NCBI GenBank assembly: GCA_963734495.1
Contig: CAVTHK010000002.1
Coordinates: 32,001 to 96,000 of the forward strand
Direction of reading: 5' to 3'
Source of the DNA: an uncultured Spirochaetota bacterium
Lineage (GTDB): Bacteria > Spirochaetota > Spirochaetia > SZUA-6 > CAVTHK01
Length of the DNA stretch: 64,000 nt
The position numbers and the translations under genes were made by a program. The notes beneath the pieces are model-generated. The model was not told the DNA's origin and did not search any database. It was given only the letters and a program-made list of their open reading frames with translations. Position 1 is the first letter of the stretch. Each line of letters opens with the position of its first letter. Positions 3,361 through 49,301 of this stretch are shown here, one piece after another.

Positions 3361-3385
3361 CGGGCTTCGAGGCTGAGCAAGGATC

Positions 3386-4100: not shown

Positions 4101-4196
4101 CTGCTTTCCTGACACCGCGGCGCGGTCGGATCGCCGTTCGCGCGCTTTTGCGGCGGTCCGGCGTATGGTAGCATGGCGAGCGGAGGTGCCCCACAG

Positions 4197-4924: not shown

Positions 4925-5751
4925 ACGCGGCACGCCCGGACCTGCGCTTCCCCCACGGAGCGGACACGCGGACCACCGCGCGGGAGCGTGACCGGGCGGC
5001 CCGGCGCGGCGGCCGCCGCGAGGGACGCGTCGACGTGGCCGACCTGATCCTGGAGCAGCTCGATGCCTGCGGCGCCCGTCGCGTCCTCGACCTCGCCTGC
5101 GGCGGCGGGGAGACGCTCCTCTTCCTCGCGGCTCGAGCGCCGGCGGTCCGCTTTGCAGGCATCGCGCCGCAAGCCGACCTGGCGCGCCGCGCCTCGGCGC
5201 TCCTCGCCCGCGCGGGGCTCGGAGAGCGGTGCCGCGTCGTTGCGGGCGACTCCGCCGCGGCGGAGCCCCATGAGCAGATCGATGCCTGGTGGGCGGCCGG
5301 GACGGCCGCGCGGGAGCTCGACCTCGCCTACGCCGTCGGCAGCTTCGCCGACGCGCGCGACCCGGCCCAGCTCCTCCCGCGGGTCTCCCCGCGCCTGCGC
5401 GCCGGCGGGCGGCTGCTGCTGTGCGGCGACTTCGCGGTGACGCCGGCGAGGACGCCGGCTGAGCGGCGCTGGCTGGAAGAAATCCGCGCCGGCCGCGGCG
5501 GCCGCGCGCTGCTGCGGCGGACCGCCGTCGAGAGGCTGGCCTCGGCGGCCGGCCTCAGGCTGGTAGAGTGCCGGGATCTGACAAGCGAGCGAGGACCGCG
5601 GCGCGTCCGGCTGCGTGCCGCGCTGGCCGCGGCGGGGCGGATGTTCGGCGCCCGCTCGCGGTTCTGGGAGCGCCGCGTCGCGGCGGACGCGCTGCGGCGC
5701 TGCCTGCAGTCGGGCGCGGCCCGCACCCTCTTCATGGTGCTCACGCGATGA
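4921..5751 (+). CDS. Class I SAM-dependent methyltransferase
   Basis: VLDLACGGG motif I and LRAGGRLLLCGD; GTGA overlap with the upstream stop. Confidence 0.7.
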   Translation: MNAARPDLRFPHGADTRTTARERDRAARRGGRREGRVDVADLILEQLDACGARRVLDLACGGGETLLFLAARAPAVRFAGIAPQADLARRASALLARAGLGERCRVVAGDSAAAEPHEQIDAWWAAGTAARELDLAYAVGSFADARDPAQLLPRVSPRLRAGGRLLLCGDFAVTPARTPAERRWLEEIRAGRGGRALLRRTAVERLASAAGLRLVECRDLTSERGPRRVRLRAALAAAGRMFGARSRFWERRVAADALRRCLQSGAARTLFMVLTR

Positions 5752-6695
5752 CCGTGCTGCGCGCCGCCCGCGTGCTGGCTGCGGTCGCCGCCGCGGGCGG
5801 CATGGCGGGCGGCTGCGCGAGCGGGCCGGAGGCCGCGGACACGGCGTCCAGCCCGCCCCTTCCCTGGACCTCGATCCGCCTCGACGCCCCGGCGGGAGAC
5901 CTCGCGCTGCTCGACATCGGCAGGCGTGATGCCGCGCTCACTCTGCTTGCCGCTCATGGCTGGGCCGGCTCCGGCCTGCAGTTCGCGCCGCTGGCCGCGG
6001 AGCTCGACGGGAACCTGAGGGTCATGGCTCCGGATTTTCCGGGAACGGGAGCCTCGAGCCCGGCCGCGGACGGGCGATACGGCATGGACCTCTTTGTCTC
6101 GGTGCTGAGCCGGCTCGTCGAAGGGACCGGCCCGGTCGTCCTCGTCGGACATTCTCTGGGCGCCAAAGTCGCAGCCGCGTTCGCGGCGCGTTACCCGGAG
6201 AAGGTCCTCGCTCTCGTGCTGATCGCGCCGTACGGGCTCGAGGGGCAGGAGGGCGTGCTGCTGCGCTTTCTGGCGCGCCACCCCGGCCTGGCGAGGCTCG
6301 CCGCGGGCCTCAACAACCGCCTGGCCGTCCGGCTGGGCGAGCGCCGCGTCTACTACGACCGGGAGCGCGCCCCGCGCGCGATCACGGAGCACACGACGGC
6401 GAGCCAGCTTTCCCGCTCCGGCCGGGCCGCCCTTGCCGCCGTGTCGACGGCCATGATCGGCACCGACCCCATCGACACGCTGCTGCCGTCGCTTCCCCAG
6501 CCGACGCTGATCCTGTGGGGCCGCGAGGACCGCGTGATGCCGTCGTCGGCCGCGGCCCGCTACGCCGCCCTCATGCCGCAGGCGCGGCTCGTGCTGCTCG
6601 ACCGCTGCGGTCACGTGCCGATGATCGAGAAGCCTGCCGAAACCGCCCGCGCGATCGAGGCGTTCCTTCGGGAGCAAAGGCTGCTGGCGCCGTAG
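5748..6695 (+). CDS. Alpha/beta hydrolase, probable lipoprotein
   Basis: HGW, PDFPGTG, GHSLG nucleophile elbow, WGRED and GHVP; N-terminal signal ending AGGC. Confidence 0.85.
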   Translation: MTVLRAARVLAAVAAAGGMAGGCASGPEAADTASSPPLPWTSIRLDAPAGDLALLDIGRRDAALTLLAAHGWAGSGLQFAPLAAELDGNLRVMAPDFPGTGASSPAADGRYGMDLFVSVLSRLVEGTGPVVLVGHSLGAKVAAAFAARYPEKVLALVLIAPYGLEGQEGVLLRFLARHPGLARLAAGLNNRLAVRLGERRVYYDRERAPRAITEHTTASQLSRSGRAALAAVSTAMIGTDPIDTLLPSLPQPTLILWGREDRVMPSSAAARYAALMPQARLVLLDRCGHVPMIEKPAETARAIEAFLREQRLLAP

Positions 6696-6726
6696 AGGGG
6701 GCGCGAGCCAGCCGGCCGCCCGTCGC

Positions 6727-7838
6727 TTACTCGGGCTGGGCCGCCCGGGGGGGCCTGCGGCGCCTCCGCGGCGGCTTCTTGGGGGCCGCCTCCGACCCGG
6801 CGCACGTAGTAGTCGAGCTTCTCCACCTTGGTCTCGACCACCCCGCGCGTCTCGGCCGCCTGGACGAAGGCCTTGAACTGCCGGAAGCCGAGGTCGCGCA
6901 GCCTCACGCCCCGCTCGAGGAGCTTGCGGCTGACCTCGGAGAACTCGTGGAAGTCCGATCGCGCTGCGTGCCGTCGAGGTCGCGCAGCACCTGGGTCAGC
7001 GCGCTCGAGGGCGCTCTGCAGGCGACCCCTTGCGCTCCGGGTACTTCGGGCCCGGGAACAGCAGCGTCTGCCGGTCCTTGTCTTCGATGCGGATGTAGCC
7101 GGCCTTGGCCGACTCGCTGACAAAGTCGCTCCAGCGACGGAAGCCGAGGTCCCGCTCGCGGAAGTTCGGGTTCAGCATCTCGAAGCGCACCTTGACCGAG
7201 CCGGGGTTCGGGCTCTTGCCCTCTTCGATCATGACGCTCGCCGCCTCGGCCAGGCACTGGAACCAGTAGTCGTGCGCCCGCGTCGACGGAGGAGCGGCGG
7301 GCCCCGGCGCCTGCGTCGTGGCCGCCTGCGCTGCCGCCTGGGCCGCGGGGGCGCCGCGCGGCTCGCGGGGCTCGTCCTCCTGCTCCTCGCCTCCCGGCAT
7401 CAGCTCGCGGTAGTCCTTGAACGAGTCCGCCACCTCGAGGAGGTCCTGCGCCGCGTTCTTCAGGTCGCAGACGATGTGGATCTGCTTGCCCGCGCGCCGC
7501 AGCGCCACCACCAGCGGCCGGAAGTCGCTGTCGCCCGTGATCAGCACGAACGCGGCGATGTGGCCGTAGACCGTCATGGTTTCGAGCGCATCGGAAACGA
7601 GCTGCATGTCCGCGCTCTTCCTCTGCGCCCGCTCGCGCGGCACGTGGACGAGGTAGAAGGACTGCCTCGCGAGCTGCGGCGCGAGCCTCTTGAAGTTCGG
7701 CTTGCTCCAGTCGCAGTAGGCGCGGGACGACGTCACTCGCCCGAACGACGTCGCGTAGTCGATGAGGGCATCGAGAAAGAGGGAGTTGGCTCCCGGGCTC
7801 ACGTTTTCGATGTCCCAGAGAATACAGACGTTTTCCAC
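6727..7838 (-). CDS. NYN-domain (PIN-like) protein with C-terminal OST-HTH/LOTUS domains (frameshifted in the 3' part; end approximate)
   Basis: WDIENV, KSADMQL..D, LITGDSDF; two FRERDLGFRRWSDFV / LRDLGFRQFKAFV LOTUS-like repeats. Confidence 0.8.
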
Positions 7839-7987
7839 GGCTCCACGGTATGCTGCCGGGGAGCCCGAGTCAAGGACAGGGGCGTTCCCTGCGTTCCCTC
7901 AGGCCCAGGCCCGCTGACGCGCGCGCCGTGACGCTCTGTGACGCTCCGTTGCCCGGCGCGCGGAATCCTCCCTATAATGGCCTTCGG

Positions 7988-8755
7988 ATGCACCTGTTTT
8001 CGCGCTCCTTCGGGGGGACCGGCCGGCCGATCGTGATCCTGCACGGGCTCTTCGGCTCCTCGCGCAACTGGGCCACCACGGGCCGGGCGCTCGCGGCCTG
8101 GGGGGCCGTGTCCGCCCTCGACCTGCGGAATCACGGCGACTCGCCCCACAGCGACTCGCACACGCTGGCCGACATGGTCGGGGACGTGAGGGAGTGGCTC
8201 GAATCGCGCGGCGGGGAGCGCCCCGTTCTGATCGGCCACTCCATGGGCGGCCAGGTGGCCATGGCGCTCGCCCTGCGAGTCGCCCGAGTCGGTGGCGGGC
8301 CTCGTCTCGGTGGACATCGCGCCGCGCGCCTACGCCGAGGACCACGCGGCGGAGCTGGCCGCGCTTTCGCTCGACGTGTCGCGCCTCTCCAGCCGCGGCC
8401 AGGTCGATCGCGCGATGGCGGCCGGGTGGCCGATCCCGGCGTTCGCGGCGTTCCTTGCGATGAACCTCGAGCGGTCCGGCGACGGCTTCCGATGGCGGCT
8501 CAACGTGGAGGCGCTCCGCCGCGCTCGCGTGACCGCCGCGGTCCCGGAGCTCCGCGGGCGCTACGGCGGGCCCGCGCTGTTCCTGGCCGCCGGCCGCTCG
8601 GGATACGTGACCCCCGCGGACCACGAGCTGATCCGCGGCCTGTTCCCGGCCGCCGAGATCCGCGTGATCGAGGACGCGGACCACTGGGTGCACGCGAGCG
8701 CGCCGCAGGCCTTTGTCGCCGAGGTGAGCGCGTTTCTCCAGAGGATCAAAGGTGA
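7988..8755 (+). CDS. Alpha/beta hydrolase, YbfF-like esterase (frameshifted ~8280; stop uncertain)
   Basis: ILHGLFGSSRNW, DLRNHGDS, GHSMGG, VDIAP, DHWVH. Confidence 0.8.
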   Translation: MHLFSRSFGGTGRPIVILHGLFGSSRNWATTGRALAAWGAVSALDLRNHGDSPHSDSHTLADMVGDVREWLESRGGERPVLIGHSMGGQVAMALALRVARVGGGPRLGGHRAARLRRGPRGGAGRAFARRVAPLQPRPGRSRDGGRVADPGVRGVPCDEPRAVRRRLPMAAQRGGAPPRSRDRRGPGAPRALRRARAVPGRRPLGIRDPRGPRADPRPVPGRRDPRDRGRGPLGARERAAGLCRRGERVSPEDQR

Positions 8756-8876
8756 AGGCGGGGCCCCGCGGGACACGACGTCTCGCGGGGGCGAAGGGAC
8801 CGGGCGGGACGAAGCGTCTCGGCAGGACAGGCGGCCCGCCGGGGCGAAGGGACTGGGCGGGACGAGGAGGCCAGGC

Positions 8877-9846
8877 TTGGCTGAAAAGTGCATCGTCGGA
8901 TTCGACATGGGCGGGACCAAGCTGGCGGCAGCGGTCGTCGACCGGAACCTCAAGGTGGTCGCGAGGGCGCGCGAGCGCACCGGCGCCGAGGACGGCCCCG
9001 AAGCCGTGTTCGAGCGGGTGGTGAGCGCGATCCGCCAGGCGCTCTCGACGGGCCGAAGGGAAGAAGGTGAGCGCCATCGGCATCGCCGTCCCCGGACCTC
9101 TCGACCGGAAGAAGGGCATCGTCCTCGAGACTCCGAACCTCGGGCTGCGCCGCTTCCCGATCGTGGGCCGTCTCTCAAAGGAGTTCGGCGTGCCCGTGCT
9201 CCTGGAAAACGACGTGAACGCGGGGGTCTACGGCGAGTACTGCGCCGGCGCGGCGCGCGGCTATCGCCACGTGGTCGGCATCTTCGTCGGGACGGGGATC
9301 GGGGGCGGTCTGGTCCTCGACGGGAAGCTCTACGTCGGCGGGACGGGCAACGCCGGCGAGATCGGCCACATGATCATCCAGACCGACGGCCCGCTGTGCG
9401 GCTGCGGCCAGTACGGGTGCGTGGAGGCCCTCGCCAGCCGCACGGCCATCGCGAAGGACGTCGTGGCTCTCGCGGGGGCCGGCTCGGCTCCGGCGCTCCT
9501 CGCGGCGGCGGGGACCGACATCAAGGAGATCCGCAGCGGAGCCCTCGCGCGGGCGGTGGAGAAAGGGGACAAGGGCGTGCGCCGCGTCATCGAGCGGGCG
9601 GCGCATTTCGTCGGCATCGCCATGGCCAACTGCGCGAACCTCCTCGCCCCCGAGGTCATCGTGCTCGGCGGCGGCCTGATGGAAAAGCTCGGCAGCCTCT
9701 TCGTAAGGGAGGCTGAGCGCTCGATGCGCGAGCACGCGATGCCGAGCCTGATATCCGGCACGAAGGTCGTGCTGGCCACCCTCGGCGACGACGCCGTGCC
9801 GATCGGCGCCGCGGCGCTGGCGCGAGGCTCCCGTGAAGGGGCTTAG
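8877..9846 (+). CDS. ROK family sugar kinase (frameshifted ~9060)
   Basis: GFDMGGTK, ENDVNA, GTGIGGG, GEIGH, CGCGQYGCVE; RBS GAGGAGG before TTG. Confidence 0.88.
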
Positions 9847-11401
9847 GGCCGGGTCGGTCCGCGCGGGAGAGACGCGCCTGGTGGCGGTGATCGACATCGG
9901 CGCCATCGGCATCCGCATCCTCGTGGCCGAGATCCAGCCGACGGGCGAGTTCCGCGTGGTCGACCGCTCGGAGCGGCCCATGGGGCTCGGCCGCGACGTG
10001 TTCACCAACGGCCTGATCAGCCGCGAGGCGATGGCACAGTCGCTCGAGATCCTGCGCCGCTTCCGCGAGATGCTCGACGGCTGGAAGATCGCGAGGCGCG
10101 ACATCCACGTGATCGCCACGAGCGCGCTGCGCGAGGCCCGCAACCGCGACACGTTCGTCGACCGCGTCGAGCTGCGCACCGGGTTCAAGATCGGCATCAT
10201 CGAAGGGGTGGAGGCCAACCGCCTCACCTACATCGCGGTGCGCTTCGCCCTCGGCGAGCAGCAGGCGCACCTCGCCCGCTCCAACTCGATCATCATCGAG
10301 GTCGGCGGCGGGACCACCGAGATCATGCTGCTCGAGCACGGCCACATGGTGTCCGCGCACAGCCTGAGCGTGGGAACGGCGCGGATCGAGCCGCAGCTCG
10401 AGAGCGTCTTCGGCAGCTCCGACCAGCTCCTGCGCTTTCTCGGGGAGAACGTGCGCACGACGACGGAGATCCTGAACTCCGAGCTGCGCCTCAAGAGCGT
10501 CCGCAACTTCATCGCGGTCGGCGGGGACGCGCGGATGGCGGCCCAGCAGGTCGGCGAGCCGATCGGCGAGCACATCTCCGTGATGTCGCGGGAGGCCTTC
10601 GAGAGCTTCTACGAGCGGATCCAGGCCCTCAGCGTCGACGGGTGCGTGCGCGAGCTGAGCATCCCGTACGCGGACGCCGAGAGCCTCATCCCGGCGCTGA
10701 TGATCTACCGGATGCTGCTGCATCGAGACCGGCGCGACGCGGCTCATCGTGCCCGACGTGAGCATCCGCGACGGCGTGCTGCTCAGCCTGGCGCGCGGCC
10801 CGGACCCCGACCTGCAGCGGGAGTTCAACGACGCAGGTGGCCGCGTCGGCCATCAGCCTCGGCCGCAAGTACCGCTTTGACGAGCGGCACGCCCGCCACG
10901 TCGCGCGGCTCGCGCTGCGGCTCTTCGACGAGCTGCGGGCCGAGCACGGGCTCGACCCCTTCCACCGCGTGCTCCTGCGGGTGGCCGCGCTCCTGCACGA
11001 CATCGGGACGTTCATCGCGGCGACGGGGCATCACAAGCACGGGCAGTACCTCGTGGCGAGCTCCGAGATCTTCGGCCTCGACCGCGAGGACATCGCCGTC
11101 GTCTCGAACGTGGTGCGCTACCACCGCAAGTCGATCCCCGCGCCCACCCACGTGAGCTTCGTGTCCCTGCCCCGCAGCCGCAGGATCGTCGTGATGAAGC
11201 TCGCGGCGATCCTGCGCGTCGCCGACGCGCTCGACCGGGGCCACAAGCAGACGCGTGCGGGGCTTCGGCATCGAGAAGCGGGACGACGAGCTCGTGCTGC
11301 ACTGCAACGCGCAGGGCGACACGTCGGTGGAGCAGTTCGGCATCGCTCGCAAGGCCGATATGTTCGAGGAGGTCTTCGGGATGAAGGTGGTCGTTCTGTG
11401 A
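9833..11401 (+). CDS. ppx: Ppx/GppA exopolyphosphatase with HD domain (frameshifts ~10730, ~10830, ~11250)
   Basis: VIDIG, IATSALREARNR, EVGGGTTE, HARHV, LLHDIG, RYHRK, LRVADALD. Confidence 0.85.
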
Positions 11402-13492
11402 GCGCCGTGCGCCTGTTCGATCGCGAGCTGTCCTGGCTCGAGTTCAACGCGCGGGTCCTCGACGAGGCGGCCCAGGGCCGGGTGCCGCTGCTCGAGCGGC
11501 TGCGCTTTGCCGCCATCTGCAGCACCAACCTCGACGAGTTCTTCATGATCCGCGTAGGCGCCCTCAAGCGGGCGCTCGCCGCCGCGCCGCACGAGGGCTA
11601 CGGGGAGCTGCTGGACCGCGTGCGCATGCGCGGGGCGCAGCTGTCGCAGGGACTGGCGCGGCTGTTCGTCGACACGCTCGCGCCCGAGATGGCCGCGCAG
11701 CACATCCGCTGGTTCCCCCGCGCCGAGCTCGGGCCGCGGGAGATCGGGCCGCTGCAGGCCCATTTCGAGCGGGAGGTCCTGCCGGTCCTCACGCCCGTGC
11801 GGGCCGCCGCCGACGGGGAGCTCCCGTTCGTGTCGGGGCTGAGGCTCCACGTGCTCTTCCGCCTGGAATCTCTCGAGCGGCCGGGGGAGCCCCTCTACGC
11901 CCTCGCGCAGCTGCCGCCCGCGCTGGACCGCGCGGTGTGGATCTCGCGGAGCGCAAAGAGCTGCGCGTTCGCGATGCTCGAGGACGAGATCCTGCTCGGC
12001 GCCGCGCAGCTCTTCCCGGGGCACATCGTGCGGGATTCGATCCTCTTCCGGGTCACGCGGGACGCGGACCTGCCGGTCGACGAGCAGCGCGACCAGGATT
12101 TCGTCCGGGCCATGGAGGAAGTGCTCGCGAGCCGCGGGCGCAGCTTCCCGGTCCGCCTCGAGACCGTCGGGGGCGGCGACGACCTGCGTGAGCTGCTGCG
12201 GCAGCGGCTGGGCCTCGACCCGCAGGACTGCCGGTCGAGCGACGCCCCGCTCGACCTCGGGTGTCTCAGCGGCTTCGCCTCGCTCGACGGGTGGAAGGCG
12301 CTCCTCAACGAGGAGTGGCCGCCGTTCACTCCCCCCGCGCTTCGCGGCGGTGAGCCGATCTGGGACCTGCTCAAGAAGGGCGATATCCTTCTCCATCACC
12401 CCTACGAGTCCTTCGAGCCGGTCGTGCGGCTGCTGTCCCAGGCGGCCGACGACTCGCACGTGCTCGCCATCAAGATGACCCTCTACCGGACCAGCGGCAG
12501 GTCGGCCCTCGTCGAGGCTCTCGCGCGCGCCGCGGCGGGGGGCAAGCAGGTCGTCGTGCTGGTGGAGCTCAAGGCGCGCTTCGACGAGGCGCGCAACATC
12601 GAGTGGGCGCGCCGGCTCGAGCGGGCGGGCGTGCATCGTGATCTACGGGATCGCGGGCCTCAAGGTCCACGCCAAGGCGCTGCTGATCGTGCGGCGGGAG
12701 GCCGGAGGCGTGCGCCGCTACCTGCACCTCGGGACCGGCAACTACAACGAGCGGACCGCGCGGATGTACACGGACTTCGCGCTGCTCACCGCGCGCGAGC
12801 AGCTCACCTACGAGGCGGCGCTCTTCTTCAACGCGATCACGGGCTACTCGTCCGTCCCCGTGCTCCGCAAGCTGGTGATGGCGCCGCACGCGATGAAGAG
12901 CCGCGTGATCGAGCTCATCCGGCGCGAGGCCGAGCGCAGCTCGCCCGCCGCGCCCGGCCGGATCATCGCGAAGATGAACTCGCTGTGCGACCCGGAGGTG
13001 ATCTCCGAGCTGTACGCCGCTTCGAGGGCCTCGGTGCGCATCGACCTGATCGTGCGCGGCATCTGCACGCTCGTGCCGGGAGCGCCGGGGATGAGCGAGA
13101 CGATCAGCGTGATCAGCATCCTCGACCGCTTCCTCGAGCACAGCCGCATCCTCTTCTTCGCCAACGGCGGGGCCGAGGAGGTGTACCTCTCGAGCGGAGA
13201 CTGGATGCCGCGCAACCTCACGGGCAGGGTGGAGCTGATGTTCCCGGTGGAGCAGCCGGACCTCCACAAGCGGCTCGTGGAGGTGCTCGAGGGGTATCTC
13301 GCCGACAACACCCAGGCGCACTCACTCGCCGCCGACGGCCGCTACACGCGCCGCCGCCCGGGCCCCGGCGAGGAGCCGATCCGCTGCCAGGCCGTGTTCT
13401 ACGAGCGCGCGCGCCGCCGCGCCGAGACCTCCCCGATCGAGCCGCTGCGCGACCTCGTGGTGCGCCGGAGGCCGCCGGCGGTCTCTCGCTAG
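11398..13492 (+). CDS. ppk1: Polyphosphate kinase 1 (frameshifted ~12635)
   Basis: RELSWLEFNARVL, NLDEFFMIRV, LHHPYESF, IKMTLYRT, ELKARFDE, KVHAK, HLGTGNYN, RFLEHSR, SGDWMPRNL. Confidence 0.93.
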
Positions 13493-13506: not shown

Positions 13507-15093
13507 TCAGTCGGGGAGCATCACGCCGGGGTTCAGCAGGCCGGCGGGGTCGAGCGCCTCCTTGACGCGCCGCATGGCGTCGATGGCGCCGTCGTCGTAC
13601 TGGATGCGCATGAACTCGCGCTTGAGGCGGCCGATGCCGTGCTCGCCCGGCGACGCTCCCGCCGAGGGCGACCGCCGTGCGGGCGAACTGCCGGTAGAGC
13701 GCCTTGCCGCGCGCCATCTCGTCGGCGGAGCGGGGCACGATGTTCACGTGCACGTGGCCGTTGCCGATGTGGCCGAAGATGTAGTGCTCCAGGCGCTCGG
13801 CTTCGAGGCCTTCGCGGTAAGCCGCCATCATCCGGCCCAGCGCCTCGCGCCCGACGGCCATGTCGGTGCCGATCTTCGTCAGCTCCGGGAGGGCGCGCTT
13901 GCGCTCGGAGACCAGCGCGTTGATGCGCTCGGGCAGCGCGTGCCGGAACTTCTTCATGGCCTGGAGCTCCTGCGGCTCGAAGCCGGCCCAGACGTCGTCC
14001 GGCGGGATGCCGCAGGCGCCGAGGGGCTTCTCGAGACCCGCGACGAAAGCATCCACGTCGGCTTCGTCGCCGAACGACGCCTCGACGTAGAGCACCGCCC
14101 GCGCGGAGTCCGGTATCTGCGGCACTCCGCTCGCCTCGCGCGCGGCGTCGCGGTAGGCGCGCAGCAGGTCGAGGGAAGGCGCGTCCATGTACTCGAGCGC
14201 GGTCGGCGCGAGACCGGGCTCCGCGCCGATCGCCGTCAACGAGCTGCTCGGCGGCCTGCTCGCTGCGGGCGAACACGCACAGGCCCACGGTGCGCGCCGG
14301 GACCGCGAGGAGGCGCACCTCGACCTCGGTGACGATCGCGAGGGTGCCTTCGCCGCCGATGAACAGGTCGATGAGGTCCATGTCCGGGCTGAGGAGGTAG
14401 CCGGCGGTGTGCTTGGTGGCCGGCTGCGGCACGGCGGCCGCCACGACTTCGAGCGCGCCGCCGACTTCGCGCTCGATCCGGAGCCGACCCGCGGCCGCCC
14501 GGCTCTCGCCGCGCGCGACGCGCAGCCTGCTGCCGTCGGCGAGGACCACGGTCAGCGACTCGACCCACTGCCGGGTCGGTCCGTAGCGCGAGCGTGCGGG
14601 CGCCGCTGGCGTTGGTCGCGACCGTGCCGCCGAGGGTGGCCGAGACCTCGGTCGGGTCCACGGGGTAGAAGAGCCTGTCCGGGCCGGGGAGTCCCGCCGC
14701 GTCCCCGCGGCGCAGCCGTTCCTGCAGCTCCTCCAGCCTGAGGCCCGCGGCGACGGTCGCCGTAAAGCACCGCAGACGCTCGTTCCACCGCACGACGGGC
14801 TCGGCCTTGAGGGAGTCGAGCGAGAGGAGCGCACCGCCCGGCTGGGCGACAGCGCCGCCGACGATGCCGGTTCGGCCGCCGGAGATCACGAGCGGGAGGC
14901 CGCTCTGCGCGCACTCGGCGACCGCGGCCGAAGCCTCGGCTGTGGTGCGCGGAAGGTACAGGGCTGCCGGCACGCCCGCGGTGAGGCGCGACTCGTCGGT
15001 GAGAAAGGAGCCGTAGGCCTCGCGGATCCGCGCGCCGTCGCGCTCGGCCGGGCAGGGCCCGCGGGCGGCAGCCAGGGCAACGAGTTCCGACAC
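13507..15093 (-). CDS. FAD-binding oxidoreductase, GlcD/D-lactate dehydrogenase-like (frameshifts ~14590, ~14240, ~13650)
   Basis: SGGRTGIVGGA, YPVDPTE.SATLGG.VATNASG, LFIGGEGTL, FGHIGNGHVHVN, C-terminal EHGIG and DP.GLLNPG. Confidence 0.82.
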
Positions 15094-23972: not shown

Positions 23973-25951
23973 ATGGCACGCACATTCTTGCGGATAGCGG
24001 CGCTTCTGGCGCTCGCACTCGTGGGCTCCGCCGTCTTGTTTGCCGGCGGGCAGCCGGACAAGCAGGGCGCGACGCCTTCGGCAGCCGCGGCCCCCGCGGC
24101 CAAGCCGGCGAAGTTCAAGGAGGCGCCCGAGCTGGCAGAGCTCGTCAAGGCGGGCAAGCTGCCTCCGGTGGAGCAGCGGCTGCCGGAGAACCCGGCGGTC
24201 GTCAAGCCGATCGAGCAGATCGGCGTCTACGGAGGCGCCTGGAAGTTCTTTATCGACAGCCAGAGCCGCCTCGTGGACGTCGGGGAGTTCACCGACATCG
24301 GCCTGCTGCGCTGGAAGCGCGACCAGAGCGGACCCGAGCCCTGCATGGCGGAAGGCTGGGAGGTCAAGGACGGCGGCAAGGAGTTCGTGATCAAGCTGCG
24401 AAAGGGCCTCAAGTGGTCGGACGGCCACCCCTTTACGGCCGACGACGTCGTCTTCTGGTGGGAAGACATCGTGATGAACAACGAGATCTACCCGATCAAG
24501 CCCTACTACATGTTCACCGCGACCCAGAAGCTCGGCACTGTGGTCAAGAACGACGATTATTCCGTGAGCTTCAAGTTCCCCGAGCCGCACGGCATGTTCA
24601 TCCTCTACCTGACAAAGGAGATCTGGACCTTCGCGCCCAAGCACTACGTGAGCCAGTTCCTGCCGAAGTACACGCCCAAGGAAAAGCTCGACGCAATGGC
24701 GAAGGAGAAGGGCTTCAAGACCTGGATCGATCTCCTGCGCTACAAGTTCAACACGTTCGGTCCGGGGGCGACGGGAGGCATGAACAACCCGGAGCTCCCG
24801 GTGATGTTCCCGTGGATTCCGACGCAGGAGCCGCCGAGCGAGAGGTTCATCTTCAAGCGCAACCCCTACTTCTACAAGGTCGACACCGACGGCAACCAGC
24901 TGCCGTACATCGACCAGGTGGACGTGCGCGTGGCGACTGCGGAGGTGATGAACCTCAAGATCATCGCCGGAGAGCCCAACTTCCAGGTCTCGCAGGCAGC
25001 AGGCCTTCCAGGAGATGCCGCTGTACATGCAGTACGCGGAAAAGAACGAGTACAACGTCTACCAGTGGGGCGACCTGCAGATCTCGGAGTGCGCGCTCTG
25101 GCCCAACCAGACGACGCCCGACCCCGTGGACCGGCAGATCTTCCGGGACGTCCGCTTCCGCCGCGCCCTGTCGGTGGCCATCAACCGGGAGAAGATCAAC
25201 AAGACCCTGTACATGGGACAGGGCAAGCCGACGGCCGCGACGTTGCCCCCGGTCGAGAGCAAGATCTACAAGGACTCCTACGCCACCGCCTACACCCAGT
25301 ACGACCCGGCGCAGGCCAACAAGTGGCTCGACGAAATGGGGCTGACGAAGCGCGACGCCGACGGATATCGGCTCAAGCCCGACGGCAAGCGCGCCGCGTT
25401 CGTCGTGGAGGTGCCCGCCCCGCGCCTCGGCATGATCGACAACCTGAACCTCATCAAGGACGACTACAAGGCGATCGGCATCGAGATCATCATCAAGCCC
25501 GAGGCCGAGAACCTGTGGAGCACGAGGAACACGGGCAACCAGTTCCAGATCGCCGGCTGGCCCATGGGCAAGTCCGCGACGGAGACGGACCTCGTCCCGA
25601 TCAACAACAACACGCGACTGGGGAGTCGCCTGGGGGATCTGGTACAACACCGGCGGCAAGCAGGGCGAGGAGCCGCCCGCGCAGATCAAGGAACTGCAGG
25701 CGGCCTGGAGCGAGATCCTCGCCAACACCGACGAGAAGGTTCAGCTGGCTGCCTACGCCAGGATCCTGCAGTCGAACGCCGACAACGTGTGGGTCATCGG
25801 CGTCGTCGGGCCGGTGCCCAAGCCGATCATCGTGAAGAAGTGGTTCCACAACGTGAAGAAGGACGGCGTGTGGAGCTACCACCACGGCAAGTTCATCGGC
25901 TGCACCGAAGTCTACCAGTGCTGGATCGAGAAGGCGCACCAGGGACAGTAG
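23973..25951 (+). CDS. ABC transporter substrate-binding protein, family 5 (frameshifts ~25005 and ~25620)
   Basis: EAPELAELVKAGKLPPVEQRLPENP, LRKGLKWSDGHPFTADDV.F, RNPYFYKVDTDGNQLPYID, FRRALSVAINR. Confidence 0.9.
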
Positions 25952-42379: not shown

Positions 42380-43595
42380 CAGGCCCCTGCCTTCGGGCGC
42401 AGTCGCCCCCCGCGAGGGCGCGGCCTTCCCGGGCGCGCTCTCGGGGGGCGCGCCCGGCGCGGGCGGCGCCGTTGCGGGCGCCTCAGCCGGAACCACGTTC
42501 TGATAGTACGTCGGGTCCGCGCGCAGGAGCGCCGCCTTGAGCAGGCGCAGCCTCACCACCACGCTGCCCTGGTCCGCCGGGTACCAGAAGAAGCGGTGCC
42601 CGTCGTTTCTCCAGTAGCGCGGCTCGACCTCCCCCCTGAACGGCGGCCTCACCTGCTGCAGCCACTTCAACGAGGGATCGCGCAGGGTCGCCTTCGGATT
42701 CTCGAACCGTATGACCGAGTCGTGGACCCCGCGCTCGTCCGCGGGCGCCCAGTCGGTCGACTGCACGTAGCGGATCGCGCCGGTTCCCAGGTCGATGGAC
42801 TGGATGACGGCCGAGTGCTTGAACGTACCGTCCGTGCCGCGGAACAGGATGATGTCGCCCGGCCTCAGGTCCTCTATCCGCTCGCTCGTGACCTCGGTGT
42901 ACCGGTTGCGGGGGTCGAGGAACGACAACCCGACGTACTGCGCGGCCCGCGACGGCGCCACGGCCCAGGCGCGCCCCAGCTCGACGTCCGCGTCGACCCC
43001 GTGCGCGAGCATCACCGCCTTCTCGATGTCGTAGACGAACCCCGCGCAATCGACCCCGAGGCCGGCGACCGCGTACAGGTAGTTGTAGACGTCGGTCTGG
43101 CTCACCGTGCCGCCGAAGCGCAGCACATGGACGCGCGTCTCCGTGCCGGGGTAGGGCCCCATCTCGAGCAGCCCGAGGAGCTTGGGGTCGTACGAGACGG
43201 TGTAGCCGCGCCGCTCGAGGTCGAAGATCACCGCCTGCTCCCGCGGCTCCATCAGCCGCGTCACGTACGCGCGGAACGCGTCGGAGGCCAGGACGGCGTC
43301 GATCAGGGGCCAGAGCTGCTCGGGGGCGCCTTTGGCTCCGAGCACGAACTCCTGCGTGTAGCCGGGCGTGCCTTCGCGCTCGCCGTTCATCCCGAAGGGC
43401 ATGCGCAGGGTCATCGCCTGGCCGCCGATGCGATAGAGCTTGAAGAACCTGCGATACGCGGTATCGATCAGCCGCTCGACGGTCGCCTCGACGGGCCCCT
43501 TGACCCGCGCGGGCGCCGGGGCGGCGGGGGCGTCGGCCTCCAGTCGAGCGAGCAGCAGCAGGCTCGAAAGCCAGCCTGCCGAAGGTGCGCAGCAT
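42287..43595 (-). CDS. Probably secreted protein with NlpC/P60-like domain (frameshift near the start ~43570; 3' end overlaps the convergent gene)
   Basis: GLGVDCAGFV and DLRPGDIILF...HSAV match the NlpC/P60 Cys/His motifs; RBS GGAGAAGG before ATG 43595. Confidence 0.6.
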
Positions 43596-43867
43596 GCCTT
43601 CTCCCGTGGCGCGATTATGCCCGCCGCCGCCGCGCGCGTCCACAGGCCGGGACGGGCCGGAACGTTGCCGCCGGCGCCGCGAATGGTGTTGACCGCGCCT
43701 GACGGGCAAAGATACCTTACAAACCTGAGGGGAGAACGCCGGGCTGCGCCCGGGCCGGCCTGACAGGCGGCCCGGCCGGGGTATGCCCGGCGGAGCCCCT
43801 CGATACCAGCAGGCCTGGCCTCGACGGCCGGGCAGCCTCGCCCCGGGCGGCCAGGCAGGGAGGCACT

Positions 43868-44782
43868 ATGCCGGCACGATCCAGCTGGAAAGGATTCCTC
43901 AAGCTCAGCCTGGTCTCGGTCCCGGTCAAGGCTTACACCGCCAACGCCACCGGAAGCGAGATCACGCTGCACCAGCTTCACTCCAAGTCCCACACCCGGA
44001 TCCAGTACAAGAAGGTCGCGCCCGGGGTGGGGGAGGTGGGCGCCGAGGAGATCGTCAAGGGCTACGAGTACGCCAAGGGCCAGTACGTGGTCATCGACGA
44101 CGACGAGCTCGACAAGCTGCGCACGGAGAGCGACAAGTCCGTGCGCATCGACGGGTTCATCAAGCCGCAGCAGGTCGACGGCATCTACTACGGGGGCCGC
44201 ACCTACTACCTCACGCCGGACGGGGCGGTGGGGCAGAAGCCCTACACGCTCCTGCTGCGGAGCATGGAGGCCAACGGGGTCTGCGCGATCGCCGAAGTCG
44301 TGATCTCCCAGAGGGAGCAGGTGGTGCTGCTGCGGCCGGTGGACGGCGTGCTCGCCATGACGGTGCTGAACCGGCACGACCAGGTCAAGCTGGCGTCGGC
44401 CTTTAAGGATGAGATCCAGGAGAGCCCCGCCACCGAAGCCGAAGTGGCGCTCACAAACACGCTCATCAACGCTTCGATGATCCAGAGCTTCGACTTCGCG
44501 CGCTATCGCGACACCTACAAGGACAAGCTCACCAAGCTGATCCAGCTCAAGGTCGAAGGGCAGGAGATCGTGCAGGTGCACGATCCGGAGGAGCCCAAGA
44601 TCATCAACCTCATGGAGGCGCTCAAGCGCAGCGTCGCGGAGGCGCAGGCCGCGGGCGCGGCCCGGGAGGCCGGAGGCAACGGCAGCTCGAGCGAGGCGGA
44701 CAAGGCCGACCTCAAGCAGGCGCCCAGCGCAAAGGCGCGGAAGACCACGCAGACCACGCAGAAGAAGAGGAAAGTTGGATAG
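43868..44782 (+). CDS. ku: NHEJ DNA end-binding protein Ku
   Basis: RSSWKG.L..SLVSVPVK.Y, RIQYKK, EIVKGYEY.KGQYV, YYLTPD, YRDTY...L..LI..K, IINLMEALKRS, basic C-terminal tail. Confidence 0.95.
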   Translation: MPARSSWKGFLKLSLVSVPVKAYTANATGSEITLHQLHSKSHTRIQYKKVAPGVGEVGAEEIVKGYEYAKGQYVVIDDDELDKLRTESDKSVRIDGFIKPQQVDGIYYGGRTYYLTPDGAVGQKPYTLLLRSMEANGVCAIAEVVISQREQVVLLRPVDGVLAMTVLNRHDQVKLASAFKDEIQESPATEAEVALTNTLINASMIQSFDFARYRDTYKDKLTKLIQLKVEGQEIVQVHDPEEPKIINLMEALKRSVAEAQAAGAAREAGGNGSSSEADKADLKQAPSAKARKTTQTTQKKRKVG

Positions 44783-45737
44783 AGCAGGCGGCGACCGGCT
44801 CCCGCGGTTCATCCCGCCGATGCTCGCCGTCCTCGGCGAGCCGTTCGATTCCGAGGAGCACCTGTACGAGGTCAAGTGGGACGGCATTCGCGCGCTCGCC
44901 CTGGTCGAGCGCGGCGGGCTGCGCCTGCTCAGCCGAAACGAGCAGCCCCTCGCGTCCCGCTACCCGGAGCTGGCGGAGCTGTCCGCGCTCCGCCCCGGGG
45001 TGGCGCTCGACGGCGAGATCGTGGCGCTCCGCGACGGCAAGCCCGACTTCAACGCGGTCCTGCGGCGCGGGGGCCTGGGCAGGGGCAAGCGATGGGGTCC
45101 GCCCGAGTCGTCCGGCCGGGATGCGGCCGGCGACGCCCCGGTGACGTACGTAGCCTTCGACATCCTCTACAAGGACCACGGGACGCTGATGCCGCTCCCG
45201 CTCGAGGAGCGGCGCAAGCACCTCGAGGAGCTGCTCGCGCCCGCGATCTCGCCGCGGCTCGTGCTCTCGGAGGGCGTGCGCGGGGCCGGGACCGCGCTCT
45301 ACCGCGAGGTCTGTGAAAAAGGGCTCGAAGGCGTCGTCGCCAAACGGCTTGCGAGCGCCTACGCGCCGGGCAAACGCAACGGCGCCTGGGTCAAGATCAA
45401 GCGCCGCCTCCGCGCGGTCTGCCTGGTCATCGGGTTCCTGGAGAAAGAAGGCCGCGACTTCCAGTGCCTCCTGGTGGCCACGAACCAGGTCCCGGGCGCC
45501 GATCCCGAGCCCGGCCCGCTGCGTTACGTGGGCCGGGTGGGCGGAGGGTTCAGCGAGGCCGTGCGGCGGCGGGTCAACGAGCTGATCTGGCCGCGGATCG
45601 TCCGCTCGCCGATCGTCCCCTGCCCCGAGCGGGGCGTGTGGATTGAAGCGGCCCTGTTTTGTACTGTAAGCTTCGCCGAGCTCACCGAGGCCGGCCTGCT
45701 GCGGGCCCCGGTGTTCGAAGGACTGGTCGAAGCGTAA
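44775..45737 (+). CDS. Stand-alone ATP-dependent DNA ligase (LigD ligase-domain/LigC type), catalytically intact
   Basis: PPMLA; motif I EVKWDGIR, III LDGEIV, IIIa AFDIL, IV EGVVAKR, V WVKIK; OB fold YVGRVGGGF...LRAPVF. Confidence 0.92.
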   Translation: MDRAGGDRLPRFIPPMLAVLGEPFDSEEHLYEVKWDGIRALALVERGGLRLLSRNEQPLASRYPELAELSALRPGVALDGEIVALRDGKPDFNAVLRRGGLGRGKRWGPPESSGRDAAGDAPVTYVAFDILYKDHGTLMPLPLEERRKHLEELLAPAISPRLVLSEGVRGAGTALYREVCEKGLEGVVAKRLASAYAPGKRNGAWVKIKRRLRAVCLVIGFLEKEGRDFQCLLVATNQVPGADPEPGPLRYVGRVGGGFSEAVRRRVNELIWPRIVRSPIVPCPERGVWIEAALFCTVSFAELTEAGLLRAPVFEGLVEA

Positions 45738-45740
45738 GCG

Positions 45741-46908
45741 ATGGAGGGCAACGATTCTCTTGCCGGCCGCGAGCTGGCGTTCACGGGTCGCCTCGTGTCC
45801 ATGACCCGGGCGGAGGCGATCGAGCGGCTCGCGCGAGCGGGGGCCCGGTGCGTCCGGACGCCCACCGAGTCGACCGACCTGCTGGTCGCCGGTCAGGCGA
45901 GGGGGCCGCTCCTCGAGGACGGCGGCCTCGCGGGCAACCTGGCCCGCTTCCGCGAGCTCAAGGAAGACGGAGCTTCGATCCGGCTCATCGAGGAGACCGA
46001 GCTCCTGCGGCTGCTCGGCGTCCCGGAGGAGATCGAGGACTTCACCCGGCTCTACACCACTGTGCAGGTCAGCCGCATCGTCGACGCGCCGCTCTCCGAA
46101 GTGCGCGGGTGGCTGCGCAACGGCCTGATCCAGCCCGCCCGCGTAGCCAAGCGCCTCGCGTGGTTCGAGTTCCGCGACATCGTCCACGCCCGCTCGCTCA
46201 GCCGCCTCGCGGCGTCGGGGATCCCGGCCGCGCGCATCCGGCGCAGCCTGGGCGAGATCTCGCGGTGGCTTCCCGACGCGGACCGGATGATCGGCCGCAT
46301 CGAGGCCTACGACCGGCGGCTGCGGGTGCGCCTGCAGGGCGGGGGCTGGGCGGAGCCGAGCGGCCAGATGCTGCTGGATTTCGCGGCCGAGCGCGGCGGC
46401 GAATCGCGCGTGGCCGTTTTCCCGCGCGGGCAACGCGGAAGCGCGGCTCGACACCGCGCCCTGGTTCTACCAGGGCGTCGCAGCCGAGGAGCGCGGCGAC
46501 CTGGAGGGCGCGGCCGAAGCGTACCGGCGCGCCGCCGGCGCCGTCCCGGAGCCCGAGACGTGCTTCAACCTCGGCAACGTTCTCTACGACCTCGGCCGCG
46601 AGGTCGAGGCCGCCGAGCGGTACCTGCAGGCGATCGAAGCGGACCGCGACTTCGCCGAGGCCTGGAACAACCTCGGCAACTCGATGGCCGCCCTGGGAAA
46701 GCTGGAGGACGCGGTGCACGCCTACGAGACGGCGCTGGCGCTCGAGCCCGCGTATGCGGACGCGCACTGCAACCTCGCGGCCGTGCTGGAGCGGCTCGGC
46801 CGGCCGGCGCAGGCGCTCGAGCACAGGGCCTCTTGCGAGAAAGCCTACCCGACGCGGCGGCACCTCGAGCTGCTGCACGGCGGAGCTGCGGACGAGGGCG
46901 AGGAGTAG
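45741..46908 (+). CDS. BRCT - MerR-type HTH - TPR multidomain protein (frameshift ~46435)
   Basis: BRCT: LAGRELAFTGRL.SMTR.EA...L...GA......TDLLVAG...IRLIEE.ELLRLLG; MerR HTH: YTTVQVSRIV......VRGW.RNGLI.P...F.FRD; TPRs: FNLGNVLY.LG, AWNNLG, YADAHCNLA. Confidence 0.8.
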
Positions 46909-46926
46909 GCGGCTCTTCCGGGGCGG

Positions 46927-48943
46927 CTACAGGTACCTGCTCAGCGCCGCAATGGCGGGCGCAAGGTCCTGCGGCTTCGAGAGCGAGGGCCGGAACAGGT
47001 CGCCCGTGCGCTCGACGCGGGCGGGCGCGTTGGCGAGCGTGAAGTCCGCGACGCGGAAGTCGCTTTCGAGCTCGTCCCACTGCAGCGGCATCGAGACGGA
47101 GGCTGCTTCCACCGGGCGCACCACGTAAGGCGGCACGACGGTCTGCTCCCGCCTGTTCTGCAGGAAATCGACGTAGACCTTGCCCTCGCGCCGGCCGATC
47201 ACGCGCTCGACCGTGGCGATGTCGCCGTGGTCGCGCACCAGCAGGCGCGCGACGGCTTCCGAGAACATGCGGCTCTGCTCGTACGTGTAGCCCGGCGCGA
47301 GCGGGATGAACACGTGAAGCCCCGATGAGCCCGACGTCTTCAGGAACGGCTCCAGCCCGAGCCCGCGCAGAAGCTTGCCCGCCTCCCGCGCGATCTTGAT
47401 CACGCTCGAAAAGGGAGCGTCCTTGGGGTCGAGGTCGAGGACGGCCCAGTCGGGCGAGTCGAGGCTTCCGCGACGGGAAAACCAGGGGTGAAGGTCGATG
47501 CTCCCCAGGTTGATCAGGTGCAGCAGGGTGCGCCGGTCGTTGCAGACGATGTAGCGCGCCGGCTCCTCTCCCTCGCGGGCCACGTCGGCCGTCTCGACCC
47601 AGTCGGGCAGGCCGTCGGGGAGCGCCTTCTGATAGAAGGACTTGCCGCGGATCCCGTCGGGCCAGCGGTACATGTGCAGCGGCCGCTCCCGCAGGTACGG
47701 CAGGATGTGGTCGGCGATCCGGTCGTAGTACGCGTACAGGTCCGCCTTGGTGTAGCCCTGCTCCGGCCAGTACACCTTTCGGGGATTCGTGAGGGGCGAC
47801 GGCGCGGGCGCTGCCGCCGCGCGGAGCGCGGCCTTTGTCCGCTTGCGTCCCGTGACGGCGATGAGCCGCCAGTCTTCGGAGCGTCCCGCGCGATACGGGC
47901 TTTCGGCGCGCTTGGCGACGATCGCCGGCAGCCCCGCTCCTGCGGCCGCTTCGGCGAGCTCCGCCCCTCGCTCGGCAATCGGGTCGACCGGCAGCACGTG
48001 AGGCAGCTCCGGAAGCAGGTTGCGCAGGGCGGCCTTTCGCTCCCGCAGCGGCAGCCCGCGCAGGTCCCACTCCTCGGCGTAGAGCACGTCGTAGAGGTAG
48101 AGCAGGATGCCCTGCCCGTCGCCCGCGAGCCTGGCGTCGAGGGCCTCGCGGGAGGGGCGGCCTTGGGCATCGAGGGCGACGAGGACGCCGTCGAGGAGCG
48201 CCGTCTCGGCCCGGACGGACTCGAGCTCCTTGACGATGCGCGGCAGGAGCGGCGCCAGGTCCTCCTTGTCCGCGCTGAGGCTCGGCGCTCGACCCTTCGA
48301 TCGCCGCGAGCACCCTCCTCCCGACAAAGCCGGGCTCGAACATCCAGGCGGGGTCGGAGAAGGGCTCGAAGCCCTCCGCCGGCTCCATCAAGCCGGGCTT
48401 GCGGGGGGCCGGCGCGCGCCGCGCCCGCGAGAGGTCGACGCCGGCGAACAGGTCGCTGCCCGAGCCCGCGTAGCGGTCGCGCGCCTTGAAGAGCAGCCAG
48501 TCCCGGCCGCCTTCGCGCTTCGTCTGCACGAGGTGCCACTCCCCGCGCAGCCGGCGGCCCTTGAGCACGAGCTTGAGCTCCCCTTCGGCAAGGGCCTGGG
48601 TGACGTCCTTGCTCCGGAGCAGCTCGTAGTCCCCCGTGTCCCAGATCTGCATGGTACCCGCGCCGTACTCGCCCGTGGGGATGACGCCGGAGAAGGTCTC
48701 GTACTCGAGGGGGTGGTCTTCGGTGCGGACCGCGAGCCGCTTGTCCGCGGGGTCGTACGAGAAGCCTTTGGGCACCGCGAACGAGGCGAGGGCTTCGCCC
48801 GCCACGAAGCGGAAATCGTAGTGAAGCCGGCGCGCCTCGTGGCGGTGCACGACGAAGACCGGCCGGAGCCGCTGCTCCGCGGCCGGCTCCGGCTCGGGCG
48901 TCCTCGAGAAATCGCGCTTGCGTTTGTATTCCGCGGTCCCCAT
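46927..48943 (-). CDS. ligD: LigD-like protein: phosphoesterase - degenerate ligase - primase/polymerase (frameshift ~48290)
   Basis: PE: YKRKRDF..TPEP, HEARRLHYDFR, AVPKG, EDHPLEY, GEYGAG; POL: LTNPRKV, TKADL..YY, RWPDG, FYQK, DLDP, KTSG..GLH, VDFLQN; the middle domain is ligase-like but lacks KxDG. Confidence 0.9.
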
Positions 48944-49035
48944 GGCCGCGGTCAATGTAACCGCCGGATGAGCGCGTTTCCAAGCGGGAACCCGGGCTTG
49001 ATCACCGCCCCGTCGCTGCGCTATCTTCTGAGGCG

Positions 49036-49284
49036 ATGCCGATCTACGAGTACATGTGCCGCGAGTGCGGCACTCGCAACGAGTTCCTCGAAGGCGTGAC
49101 CAGCGAGAAGGTGGACAAGGTCTGCTCCGAGTGCGGGAGCGGCGATCTCACCAAGCTGATTTCGATGGCGGCCTTTACCGTCGCCGGCGGCCATTCGTCG
49201 GCCGAGGGCGCCTGCGCCTGCGGCCACGAAGGCCACGGTCCCGAAGGCGGCTGCTGCGGCGGGGACTGCGCCTGCAACAACTGA
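49036..49284 (+). CDS. FmdB family zinc-ribbon protein
   Basis: MPIYEY.C..CG...E...C..CGS..L.KLIS; Cys-rich tail. Confidence 0.88.
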   Translation: MPIYEYMCRECGTRNEFLEGVTSEKVDKVCSECGSGDLTKLISMAAFTVAGGHSSAEGACACGHEGHGPEGGCCGGDCACNN

Positions 49285-49301
49285 GGCTCGCGCCGGCGGG
49301 C

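Follow-up and report, generated by a model that had tools for sequence, protein, structure and literature searches.

A 64,000-nt stretch of DNA from an uncultured Spirochaetota bacterium (assembly GCA_963734495.1, contig CAVTHK010000002.1, positions 32,001 to 96,000; hereafter the window, with a G+C content of ~70%) carries, between its positions 43868 and 48943, a cluster of four genes related to non-homologous end joining (NHEJ) in bacteria. Three of these genes lie in tandem on the plus strand and encode Ku, a stand-alone ATP-dependent DNA ligase, and a protein (hereafter the third protein) in which a BRCT domain, a MerR-type winged helix-turn-helix (wHTH) and tetratricopeptide repeats (TPR) are combined. 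The fourth gene, ligD, converges with the third gene and encodes a LigD with the domain order 3'-phosphoesterase (PE), ligase (LIG) and primase-polymerase (POL), the LIG part being a degenerate remnant. The features of the locus are listed below, with the basis of each assignment in brackets; GC3 denotes the G+C content at third codon positions, and OB the oligonucleotide/oligosaccharide-binding domain.

43689-43718, plus strand: promoter-like site, TTGACC, 18-nt spacer, TACCTT, ~150 nt before the ku ATG (comparison of loci)
43868-44782, plus strand: ku, 304 aa, with a C-terminal KQAPSAK motif and basic tail (Pfam Ku, TIGR02772)
44775-45737, plus strand: stand-alone ATP-dependent DNA ligase, 320 aa, adenylation and OB domains (Pfam A_M and A_C)
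45741-46430, plus strand: third gene, frame 1, BRCT, MerR-type wHTH and conserved LRVRL..GQ.LLDF segment (Pfam, intact 383-aa orthologues)
46411-46908, plus strand: third gene, frame 2, TPR domain, stop at 46906-46908 (TPR_2 at 83.6 bits and other TPR families)
46424-46461, plus strand: interval in which the third gene has a +1 frameshift by a single surplus base, with a GGG run at 46428-46430 (frames compared with orthologues, GC3 frame switch)
46927-47751, minus strand: LigD POL domain, including the stop at 46927-46929 (LigD_Prim-Pol at 288 bits)
47752-48346, minus strand: degenerate adenylation remnant of the LigD LIG domain, without OB domain (weak DNA_ligase_A_M match at 26.7 bits, motif table)
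48293-48295, minus strand: +1 frameshift in ligD at a GGG run, dividing the PE frame from the LIG-remnant/POL frame (frame comparison, GC3 frame switch)
48347-48943, minus strand: LigD PE domain, from the ATG at 48943 (LigD_N at 135 bits)

A first-pass annotation of this DNA had described the layout as an operon facing ligD, and most of its description stands. Indeed, the end of ku overlaps the start of the ligase gene by 8 nt, the ligase opening with a TTG codon at 44775 that is the sole start codon 5' of its conserved N-terminus, and the ATG of the third gene follows the end of the ligase gene after 3 nt. Gene order and coordinates also hold; however, the third gene and ligD are each not a single open frame in this copy, and the proposed 18-nt gap between their stop codons is valid only if the frameshift in the third gene is read through. 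As written, frame 1 of the third gene continues to 47042 and overlaps the 3' end of ligD. The assignment of the four products to Ku, ligase, BRCT-MerR-TPR protein and LigD was borne out by Pfam, with the BRCT of the window copy remaining below threshold.

The ku product matched Pfam Ku (PF02735) at 150.4 bits and exceeded the TIGR02772 equivalog cut-off (256.2 versus 150 bits) over the entire profile (positions 1-259 of 259), and is an ordinary member of the bacterial Ku family. In both Spirochaetota and Planctomycetota, the Ku proteins of related clusters (loci L013-L067; window positions 44690-44779) terminate in a conserved K(Q/M)APSAK motif and, beyond it, the basic tail KKRKxG, and this segment could represent a docking peptide for the TPR protein or for LigD.

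The separate ligase and the ligase remnant of LigD

Pfam analysis of the stand-alone ligase identified the adenylation domain (DNA_ligase_A_M, PF01068; 105 bits) and the OB domain (DNA_ligase_A_C, PF04679; 48.5 bits), and motifs I, III, IIIa, IV and V are intact (EVKWDGIR, LDGEIV, FDILY, EGVVAKR and WVKIKR, respectively). Against the TIGR02779 model the protein scored 217.7 bits (cut-off 227.75), with an alignment spanning positions 1-293 of 302. The source genome encodes one Ku, one LigD, and, besides the ligase of the cluster, a second ATP-dependent ligase outside the window (G000:C1:484344-485126, minus strand), which has intact motifs I, III, IV and V and shares 28% identity with that of the cluster.

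The PE and POL domains of LigD are matched along their full profiles (positions 1-107 of 107 and 1-254 of 254, respectively), and the corresponding domains of P0002, an intact LigD orthologue, exceeded the cut-offs of TIGR02777 (188 versus 144 bits) and TIGR02778 (242 versus 214.7 bits). The LigD translation contains the segments that we take to be the catalytic motifs of PE and POL, with DLD, SGSSGLH and VDFLQN in the POL part. The central domain differs from that of a functional ligase: motif I reads EPGFVGRR in place of E.K.DG.R and therefore lacks the lysine of KxDG, motif III reads DGV in place of DGE, motif IV reads PAIVAKR, and motif V reads WRLIAV in place of W.K.K. Furthermore, no match to the OB domain (A_C) was found in the window LigD pieces or in P0002, and in P0002 TIGR02779 aligns over positions 10-180 of 302 only. 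P0002 also falls below the canonical LigD model TIGR02776 (349 bits versus a cut-off of 373). The proposal that the ligase domain of this LigD is dead is thus upheld by the loss of both the motif I lysine and the OB domain. Judged by its motifs, a LigD of the window type fails two defining features of canonical LigD and should not be filed as a ligase, which is the name that annotation models would give it.

The cluster was found to extend beyond the source genome. Of 41 genomes of the same order, 13, which belong to three of its eight families, yielded relatives in searches with the BRCT-MerR half of the third protein, and tblastn analysis of the 8 kb flanks showed that in most of these relatives the succession Ku, ligase and third gene is likewise followed by a convergent gene for PE, LIG remnant and POL. 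In one such genome (G009) all genes of the cluster are intact, the third protein (P0001) and LigD (P0002) measuring 383 and 724 aa, respectively. A wider set was assembled by a pattern scan with one genome per species, from which the best 80 of 517 relatives were used. Sixty-two loci (L025-L086) matched beyond the TPR region, 15 of them in Spirochaetia- or Spirochaetota-labelled metagenome-assembled genomes (MAGs) and 47 in Planctomycetota or unclassified ones, while L087-L104 proved to be TPR-only look-alikes; since L075 matched over residues 194-356 only, it was dropped, leaving 61 loci to be counted. The same four-gene layout occurs in both Spirochaetota-labelled and Planctomycetota MAGs.

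To compare the two kinds of ligase domain, the LigD region between PE and POL was aligned with the stand-alone ligases. Three loci with frame breaks or stops (L013, L026 and L030) had been left out beforehand, L046 was not placed among the stand-alone rows since its ligase match is the domain of LigD itself, and two pairs of rows represent the same contig twice. All 46 stand-alone ligase rows retain motifs I, III, IV and V (E.K.DG.R, DGE, EG..K and W.K.K). In contrast, 34 of 35 LigD rows have replaced the motif I lysine (by S, A, L, E, R, D, Q or G), and in the same 34 the glutamate of motif III and the lysines of motif V are gone as well, yet FDxLY/H and the AKR of motif IV persist. A stand-alone ligase is present in the locus of every one of these lysine-less LigD rows (34/34). 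The single LigD with intact motifs, that of L046, has both A_M and A_C domains and no stand-alone ligase beside it. This complementary pattern, together with the reverse case, supports the proposition of the first-pass annotation that ligation has been outsourced to a separate enzyme, and at the level of sequence an enzymatic division of labour between LigD and the separate ligase is well supported.

In a quick maximum-likelihood tree of 79 rows, rooted on the other ligase of the genome as one long outgroup, 32 dead remnants fall into a single long-stemmed clade (SH-aLRT 100), which groups with three canonical LigD LIG domains (95), and 43 stand-alone ligases form a separate clade (98). Since the remnants group with the canonical domains, the LIG remnant would have decayed in place from the ligase domain of LigD, possibly once. 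The stand-alone ligase is, on this tree, a distinct LigD-like lineage; its origin as a recent duplicate of the LIG domain of LigD was rejected in view of the separate and well-supported clades.

The third protein and its linkage to Ku

The third gene of the window matched MerR_1 at 26.9 bits (cut-off 21.6), and TPR_2 matched three stretches of its second frame. At the family level, MerR_1 was detected in 30 of 30 members and BRCT in 18 of 30 (best E-value 1e-8), BRCT being absent from many Planctomycetota members and from one Spirochaetota lineage. An AlphaFold model of P0001, computed with 40 relatives (mean pLDDT 84), predicts a BRCT fold at residues 11-92 (beta-alpha-beta-beta-alpha-beta-alpha), a winged helix at 104-176, a poorly ordered stretch with the conserved LRVRL..G..EP.GQ.L.DF segment, a disordered linker, and TPR helix pairs at 228-374 (pLDDT >90). 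From within the winged helix onwards, this monomer model contains three short helices (144-158, 163-176 and 180-192, the last of low confidence) and no long coiled coil. In the databases, members of the family are named 'tetratricopeptide repeat protein', 'hypothetical protein' or 'MerR regulator' only. In one family of the same order (f7; L020-L023), the linker between GQxLLDF and TPR has 60-100 additional residues and a composition rich in Pro, Gly and Ala, and the TG motif of the BRCT reads AG.

Comparison of the N-terminal half with solved structures points to a BRCT and a winged-helix fold. Profile searches matched the BRCT domains of RFC1 (4.9e-7) and LigA (1.3e-5) and the regulator GlnR (6.3e-6), while Foldseek with the model of this half returned the BRCTs of LigA, RFC1, PARP1 and Pol mu and the winged helices of BmrR, GlnR, TnrA and CbpM. 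In the TG motif of the BRCT, the glycine is present in 30 of 30 members and the threonine in 23, the remaining seven having alanine. The BRCTs of RFC1, prokaryotic ligases and PARP1 constitute a DNA-binding subclass that prefers 5'-phosphorylated recessed ends via the TG motif, as described in a passage of PMC9359705. Sequence matches to designer pentatricopeptide repeat proteins in the PDB were also obtained; these were taken as compositional, no stretch passing alone.

The linkage of the third gene to ku and ligD, on which the first-pass annotation had hung its proposal, recurs in other genomes. Ku, ligase or LigD was found in the fetched flank of 44 of the 61 loci, with Ku in 38 and all three in 27, and all 15 Spirochaetota loci are linked in this manner. 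Among the 41 genomes of the same order, Ku (TIGR02772) is encoded by 12, each of which also carries the third gene, whereas none of the 28 genomes devoid of the third gene has Ku. The sole exception among the 13 carriers is G022, a fragmented genome in which the third gene lies near a contig end and no Ku match was obtained. As these 41 genomes are kin, the co-occurrence is to be read as a pattern and not as a statistic.

The association extends to Betaproteobacteria. On plasmids of Variovorax and Paraburkholderia, a 275-aa MerR-TPR protein devoid of BRCT follows a gene annotated 'Ku protein' by 33 nt and 1 nt, respectively, and the LigD encoded nearby keeps all ligase motifs. Since the third gene also accompanies a canonical LigD, it seems to be tied to Ku and not to the split of the ligase. 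Given that these BRCT-less forms follow Ku, the constant core of the family would therefore consist of the wHTH, GQxLLDF and TPR, with Ku as its constant neighbour. On the Paraburkholderia terrae plasmid pPT365 (L106, positions 1-12416), ligD, ku and the MerR-TPR gene lie amid further genes annotated for damage tolerance, whose products are an error-prone DNA polymerase, an SOS response-associated peptidase and a 3'-5' exonuclease.

Modelling, as the first-pass annotation had suggested for the protein pairs, placed the complex of a Ku dimer and the third protein above its controls (ipSAE 0.35 versus 0.04 for the best control), although with a weak score (verdict 'weak support') and without defining an interface. 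At least 70% of the contacts agreed between runs, with a pLDDT of the partner of at least 70. The mark applied to such scores is reached by 58 of 80 solved complexes and by 2 of 110 mismatched pairs; at an ipSAE of 0.60 or below, it is reached by only 7 of the 80 solved complexes and by both mismatches.

The region upstream of ku was compared among 20 loci. In 16 of these, in a search made without a shuffle control, a TTGACN-N17/18-TAnnnT site was found, with a spacer of 17 nt in 11 loci, 18 nt in five and 19-20 nt in none, and the spacer sequences are not conserved as a palindrome. A generic promoter and terminator scan of positions 43400-49300 detected neither a terminator nor a promoter for ku; its single promoter-like site lies on the minus strand. 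The ku leader is long and GC-rich, measuring ~140 nt in the window (43719-43867). In some relatives (L026, L027 and L017), downstream of the promoter-like site, it contains an inverted repeat, CTGGGCGG ... CCGCCCAG, which could form an RNA hairpin or a protein-binding site, the weight of such a repeat being uncertain in DNA of 70% G+C.

A model for the cluster and its alternatives

Taken together, these data make it fairly probable that the cluster is a conserved four-gene NHEJ module in which the separate ligase seals, LigD heals and fills, and the third protein serves as a Ku-associated adaptor. Ku would bind the broken ends, and LigD would provide 3'-end healing through PE and gap filling through POL, its central part being retained as a non-catalytic, structural remnant. 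Strand sealing would fall to the LigD-type ATP-dependent ligase encoded right after ku. In the third protein, the BRCT and the MerR-type winged helix are predicted to contact DNA and the TPR to contact a protein partner. The role of this protein as a DNA-binding adaptor associated with Ku is narrowly the favoured one, on the basis of gene linkage, domain content and the complex model.

A number of observations weigh against this model. The division of labour is a proposal drawn from sequences and models, and since the genome encodes a second ATP-dependent ligase, sealing by the ligase of the cluster is not proven. The score of the complex between Ku and the third protein is weak, MerR_1 is otherwise typical of transcription factors, and the BRCT (PF00533) of the window copy reaches 17.6 bits, below the cut-off of 21.3. 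Moreover, BRCT-mediated recognition of DNA ends cannot be essential to a family in which many members are devoid of BRCT. Seventeen of the 61 loci, all from Planctomycetota or other groups and some on short contigs, have no NHEJ gene in the fetched flank, hence the third protein may have an NHEJ-independent function. In five of these loci that were examined, the neighbours are unrelated to repair and no alternative partner is shared; they include an amidohydrolase (three loci), an FAD/Fe-S oxidase, a peptidase S9, a kinase-WD40 protein and a CHASE histidine kinase. Finally, two of the four cluster genes carry frameshifts in the window copy, and in a genome of the same genus (G001; L013, positions 5609-10433) PE, POL, ligase and Ku are all broken, the third gene being intact.

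With respect to the frameshifts, translation in all frames places BRCT-MerR in frame 1 and TPR in frame 2 of the third gene, and the frame switches of both genes are also visible in the GC3 frame plot; the ligD orthologue of L014 is a single frame of matching length. Across the 64-kb window, the same plot displays roughly ten frame jumps without a stop. Pfam matches confirm three of these cases in unrelated genes: a SBP_bac_5 gene (24006-25927) is split near 24970, with profile positions 2-170 in one frame and 194-352 in the next, an alpha/beta hydrolase gene (Abhydrolase_1, 7916-8801) is split across frames near 8270, and an FAD-linked oxidase gene at 13622-14961 is spread over three frames. 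A second FAD_binding_4 gene, at ~40660, is likewise split across frames. The source genome is 83% complete in 18 contigs, a pattern associated with long-read assemblies that carry indels. The source reads were sought among public sequencing runs, none of which held more than 17% of the sampled words. Contigs from four wetland and soil runs were compared at 88% likeness, the pieces being short and divergent: one X2 contig (depth 3, weak) lacks one base at 48296, beside the GGG run of ligD, while at the third-gene site an insertion of three bases is present in one contig of X3, and one contig of X4 spans 46310-46429 ungapped. These contigs do not decide whether the frameshifts are real.

Because unrelated genes of the window show the same kind of break, a sign of an indel-rich assembly, we consider it very likely that both frameshifts of the cluster are assembly indels, and the organism probably has all four genes intact. 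A cluster in decay, in which real frameshifts had left ligD and the third gene as pseudogenes beside intact ku and lig, would account for two frame breaks inside 5.1 kb and could call on the broken cluster of G001, where the breaks lie at other sites. It appears quite improbable, however, as housekeeping-type genes elsewhere in the window are interrupted at a density similar to that of the cluster, and a single extra base explains each shift, with a GGG run at the ligD site and inside the third-gene interval. Furthermore, the GC3 coding signal is still strong in the shifted frames, the downstream parts are free of stops and retain full Pfam scores, and the number of contigs and the completeness of the genome fit an indel-carrying long-read assembly.

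Two further alternatives concern the functions proposed for individual proteins. The LIG remnant may not be inert, but may bind DNA or nucleotide, or else recruit the stand-alone ligase or control it, the third protein being unrelated to that activity. The retention of motif IIIa (FDxLY/H) and of the AKR of motif IV argues for selection on function, the remnants form one clade conserved across two phyla, and the stand-alone ligase always co-occurs (34/34 loci); this conservation could nonetheless merely reflect a linker role between PE and POL, and we regard an active remnant as possible but doubtful. The third protein, for its part, might be an autoregulatory MerR-type regulator of the ku operon that acts outside the repair complex, with TPR and BRCT as sensor or partner-binding parts. 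Such a role would suit a family with MerR_1 in all 30 members, whose closest solved winged helices are those of the transcription factors GlnR, TnrA and BmrR and whose relatives are named 'DNA-binding transcriptional MerR regulator' by some sources; the GC-rich inverted repeats in the ku leader of some loci and the 17 loci devoid of NHEJ neighbours would also fit. Promoters activated by MerR proteins have an over-long spacer of 19-20 nt with a palindromic operator. The 17-18-nt spacers found at 16 of 20 loci, with no conserved palindrome, therefore argue against classical MerR activation at the ku promoter, while repression is still compatible with them. In addition, the third gene is the last of its operon, 3 nt past lig, the monomer model shows no long coiled-coil dimerization helix after the HTH, the BRCT falls into the DNA-binding subclass known from proteins of repair and replication, and the complex model with Ku passes its controls, though weakly. 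A regulator of this kind is thus unlikely; the most likely site of action of the third protein is the Ku-DNA end complex, in a role other than that of a classical MerR transcription activator.

A more far-reaching version of the model can be offered as a tentative suggestion. In Spirochaetota, Planctomycetota and some Proteobacteria, end joining might be performed by a machine of three to four proteins, in which the BRCT/wHTH/TPR factor binds the 5'-phosphorylated end and Ku and organizes the enzymes, while the pseudo-ligase of LigD docks and hands the healed end to the separate ligase. If this were true, the third protein and the pseudo-ligase would be bacterial functional counterparts of the non-catalytic scaffolds of eukaryotic NHEJ. 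Should the helper indeed act in repair, the recognition of ends, their synapsis and the hand-over between enzymes would become a testable question in bacteria, and the prediction of NHEJ proficiency from genomes would change. Cultured carriers of the BRCT-less form, among them Paraburkholderia terrae (KU-64, plasmid pPT365) and Variovorax (sp. WDL1, plasmid 3), make genetics feasible.

Comparison with known systems

The third protein resembles three groups of characterized proteins in part. With MerR regulators (the minimal GlnR and TnrA, 4r4e and 4r22, and BmrR) it shares the MerR_1 winged HTH and the fold matches, whereas it shows no long coiled coil in the monomer model, carries its HTH in mid-protein, and ends in TPR instead of a ligand-binding domain. 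With the single DNA-binding BRCTs of RFC1 (2k6g/2ebu), LigA (2owo, 1l7b) and PARP1 (2cok) it shares a profile and fold match over the N-terminal 90 residues, with TG largely kept; here, however, the BRCT is fused to a MerR-type wHTH and TPR within a Ku operon, and the binding of DNA or 5'-phosphate is a prediction. The likeness to eukaryotic BRCT scaffolding (ligase IV-XRCC4, Pol mu/lambda), to which the first-pass annotation had drawn attention, consists in a BRCT-bearing, non-catalytic protein being encoded with Ku and ligase. This analogy proved to be weak, since BRCT is missing from many family members: the domain is single and optional, of the RFC1/LigA/PARP1 kind, and not the tandem, phosphopeptide- or XRCC4-binding pair of ligase IV. 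The BRCTs of Pol mu and ligase IV were among the weaker Foldseek matches (E-values 3.7e-3 to 1.4e-2), and no homology of the third protein to XRCC4, XLF or PAXX was seen.

In teaching and in models, bacterial NHEJ consists of Ku plus LigD. The cluster agrees with the canonical system of Pseudomonas and Agrobacterium, in which LigD has the order PE-LIG-POL, in its Ku, its full-length PE and POL, its domain order and the nearness of ku to ligD. It differs in a LIG domain that has lost the motif I lysine, the motif III glutamate, the motif V lysines and the OB domain, and in the addition of a conserved separate ligase and a fourth gene. Split forms of NHEJ, with archaeal and actinobacterial examples, share with it a stand-alone LigD-type ligase encoded beside Ku. 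NHEJ in which the domains of LigD reside on separate proteins is a recognized category, termed 'nonconventional' or split (Sharda et al. 2020, PMC7719229); the present cluster departs from it in retaining a three-domain-looking LigD with a dead LIG remnant, hence a survey of domain presence would count it as conventional. The portions of PMC7719229 at hand contain no mention of lysine, BRCT, Planctomycetes, Spirochaetes or a retained dead LIG remnant, and those of a paper on Sinorhizobium meliloti NHEJ (PMC6379672) mention neither the third-gene family nor a dead LIG domain. A search of the literature, supplements and subscription journals excepted, returned no paper on either subject.

We conclude that the cluster represents a genuine and conserved variant of bacterial NHEJ, apparently one not described before, and that end joining in these bacteria probably needs more than the two proteins of the textbook. 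Its two departures from the known systems, namely a conserved dead LIG domain in LigD accompanied by a separate ligase, and an unnamed family that tracks Ku in at least three phyla, are both invisible to surveys of domain presence.

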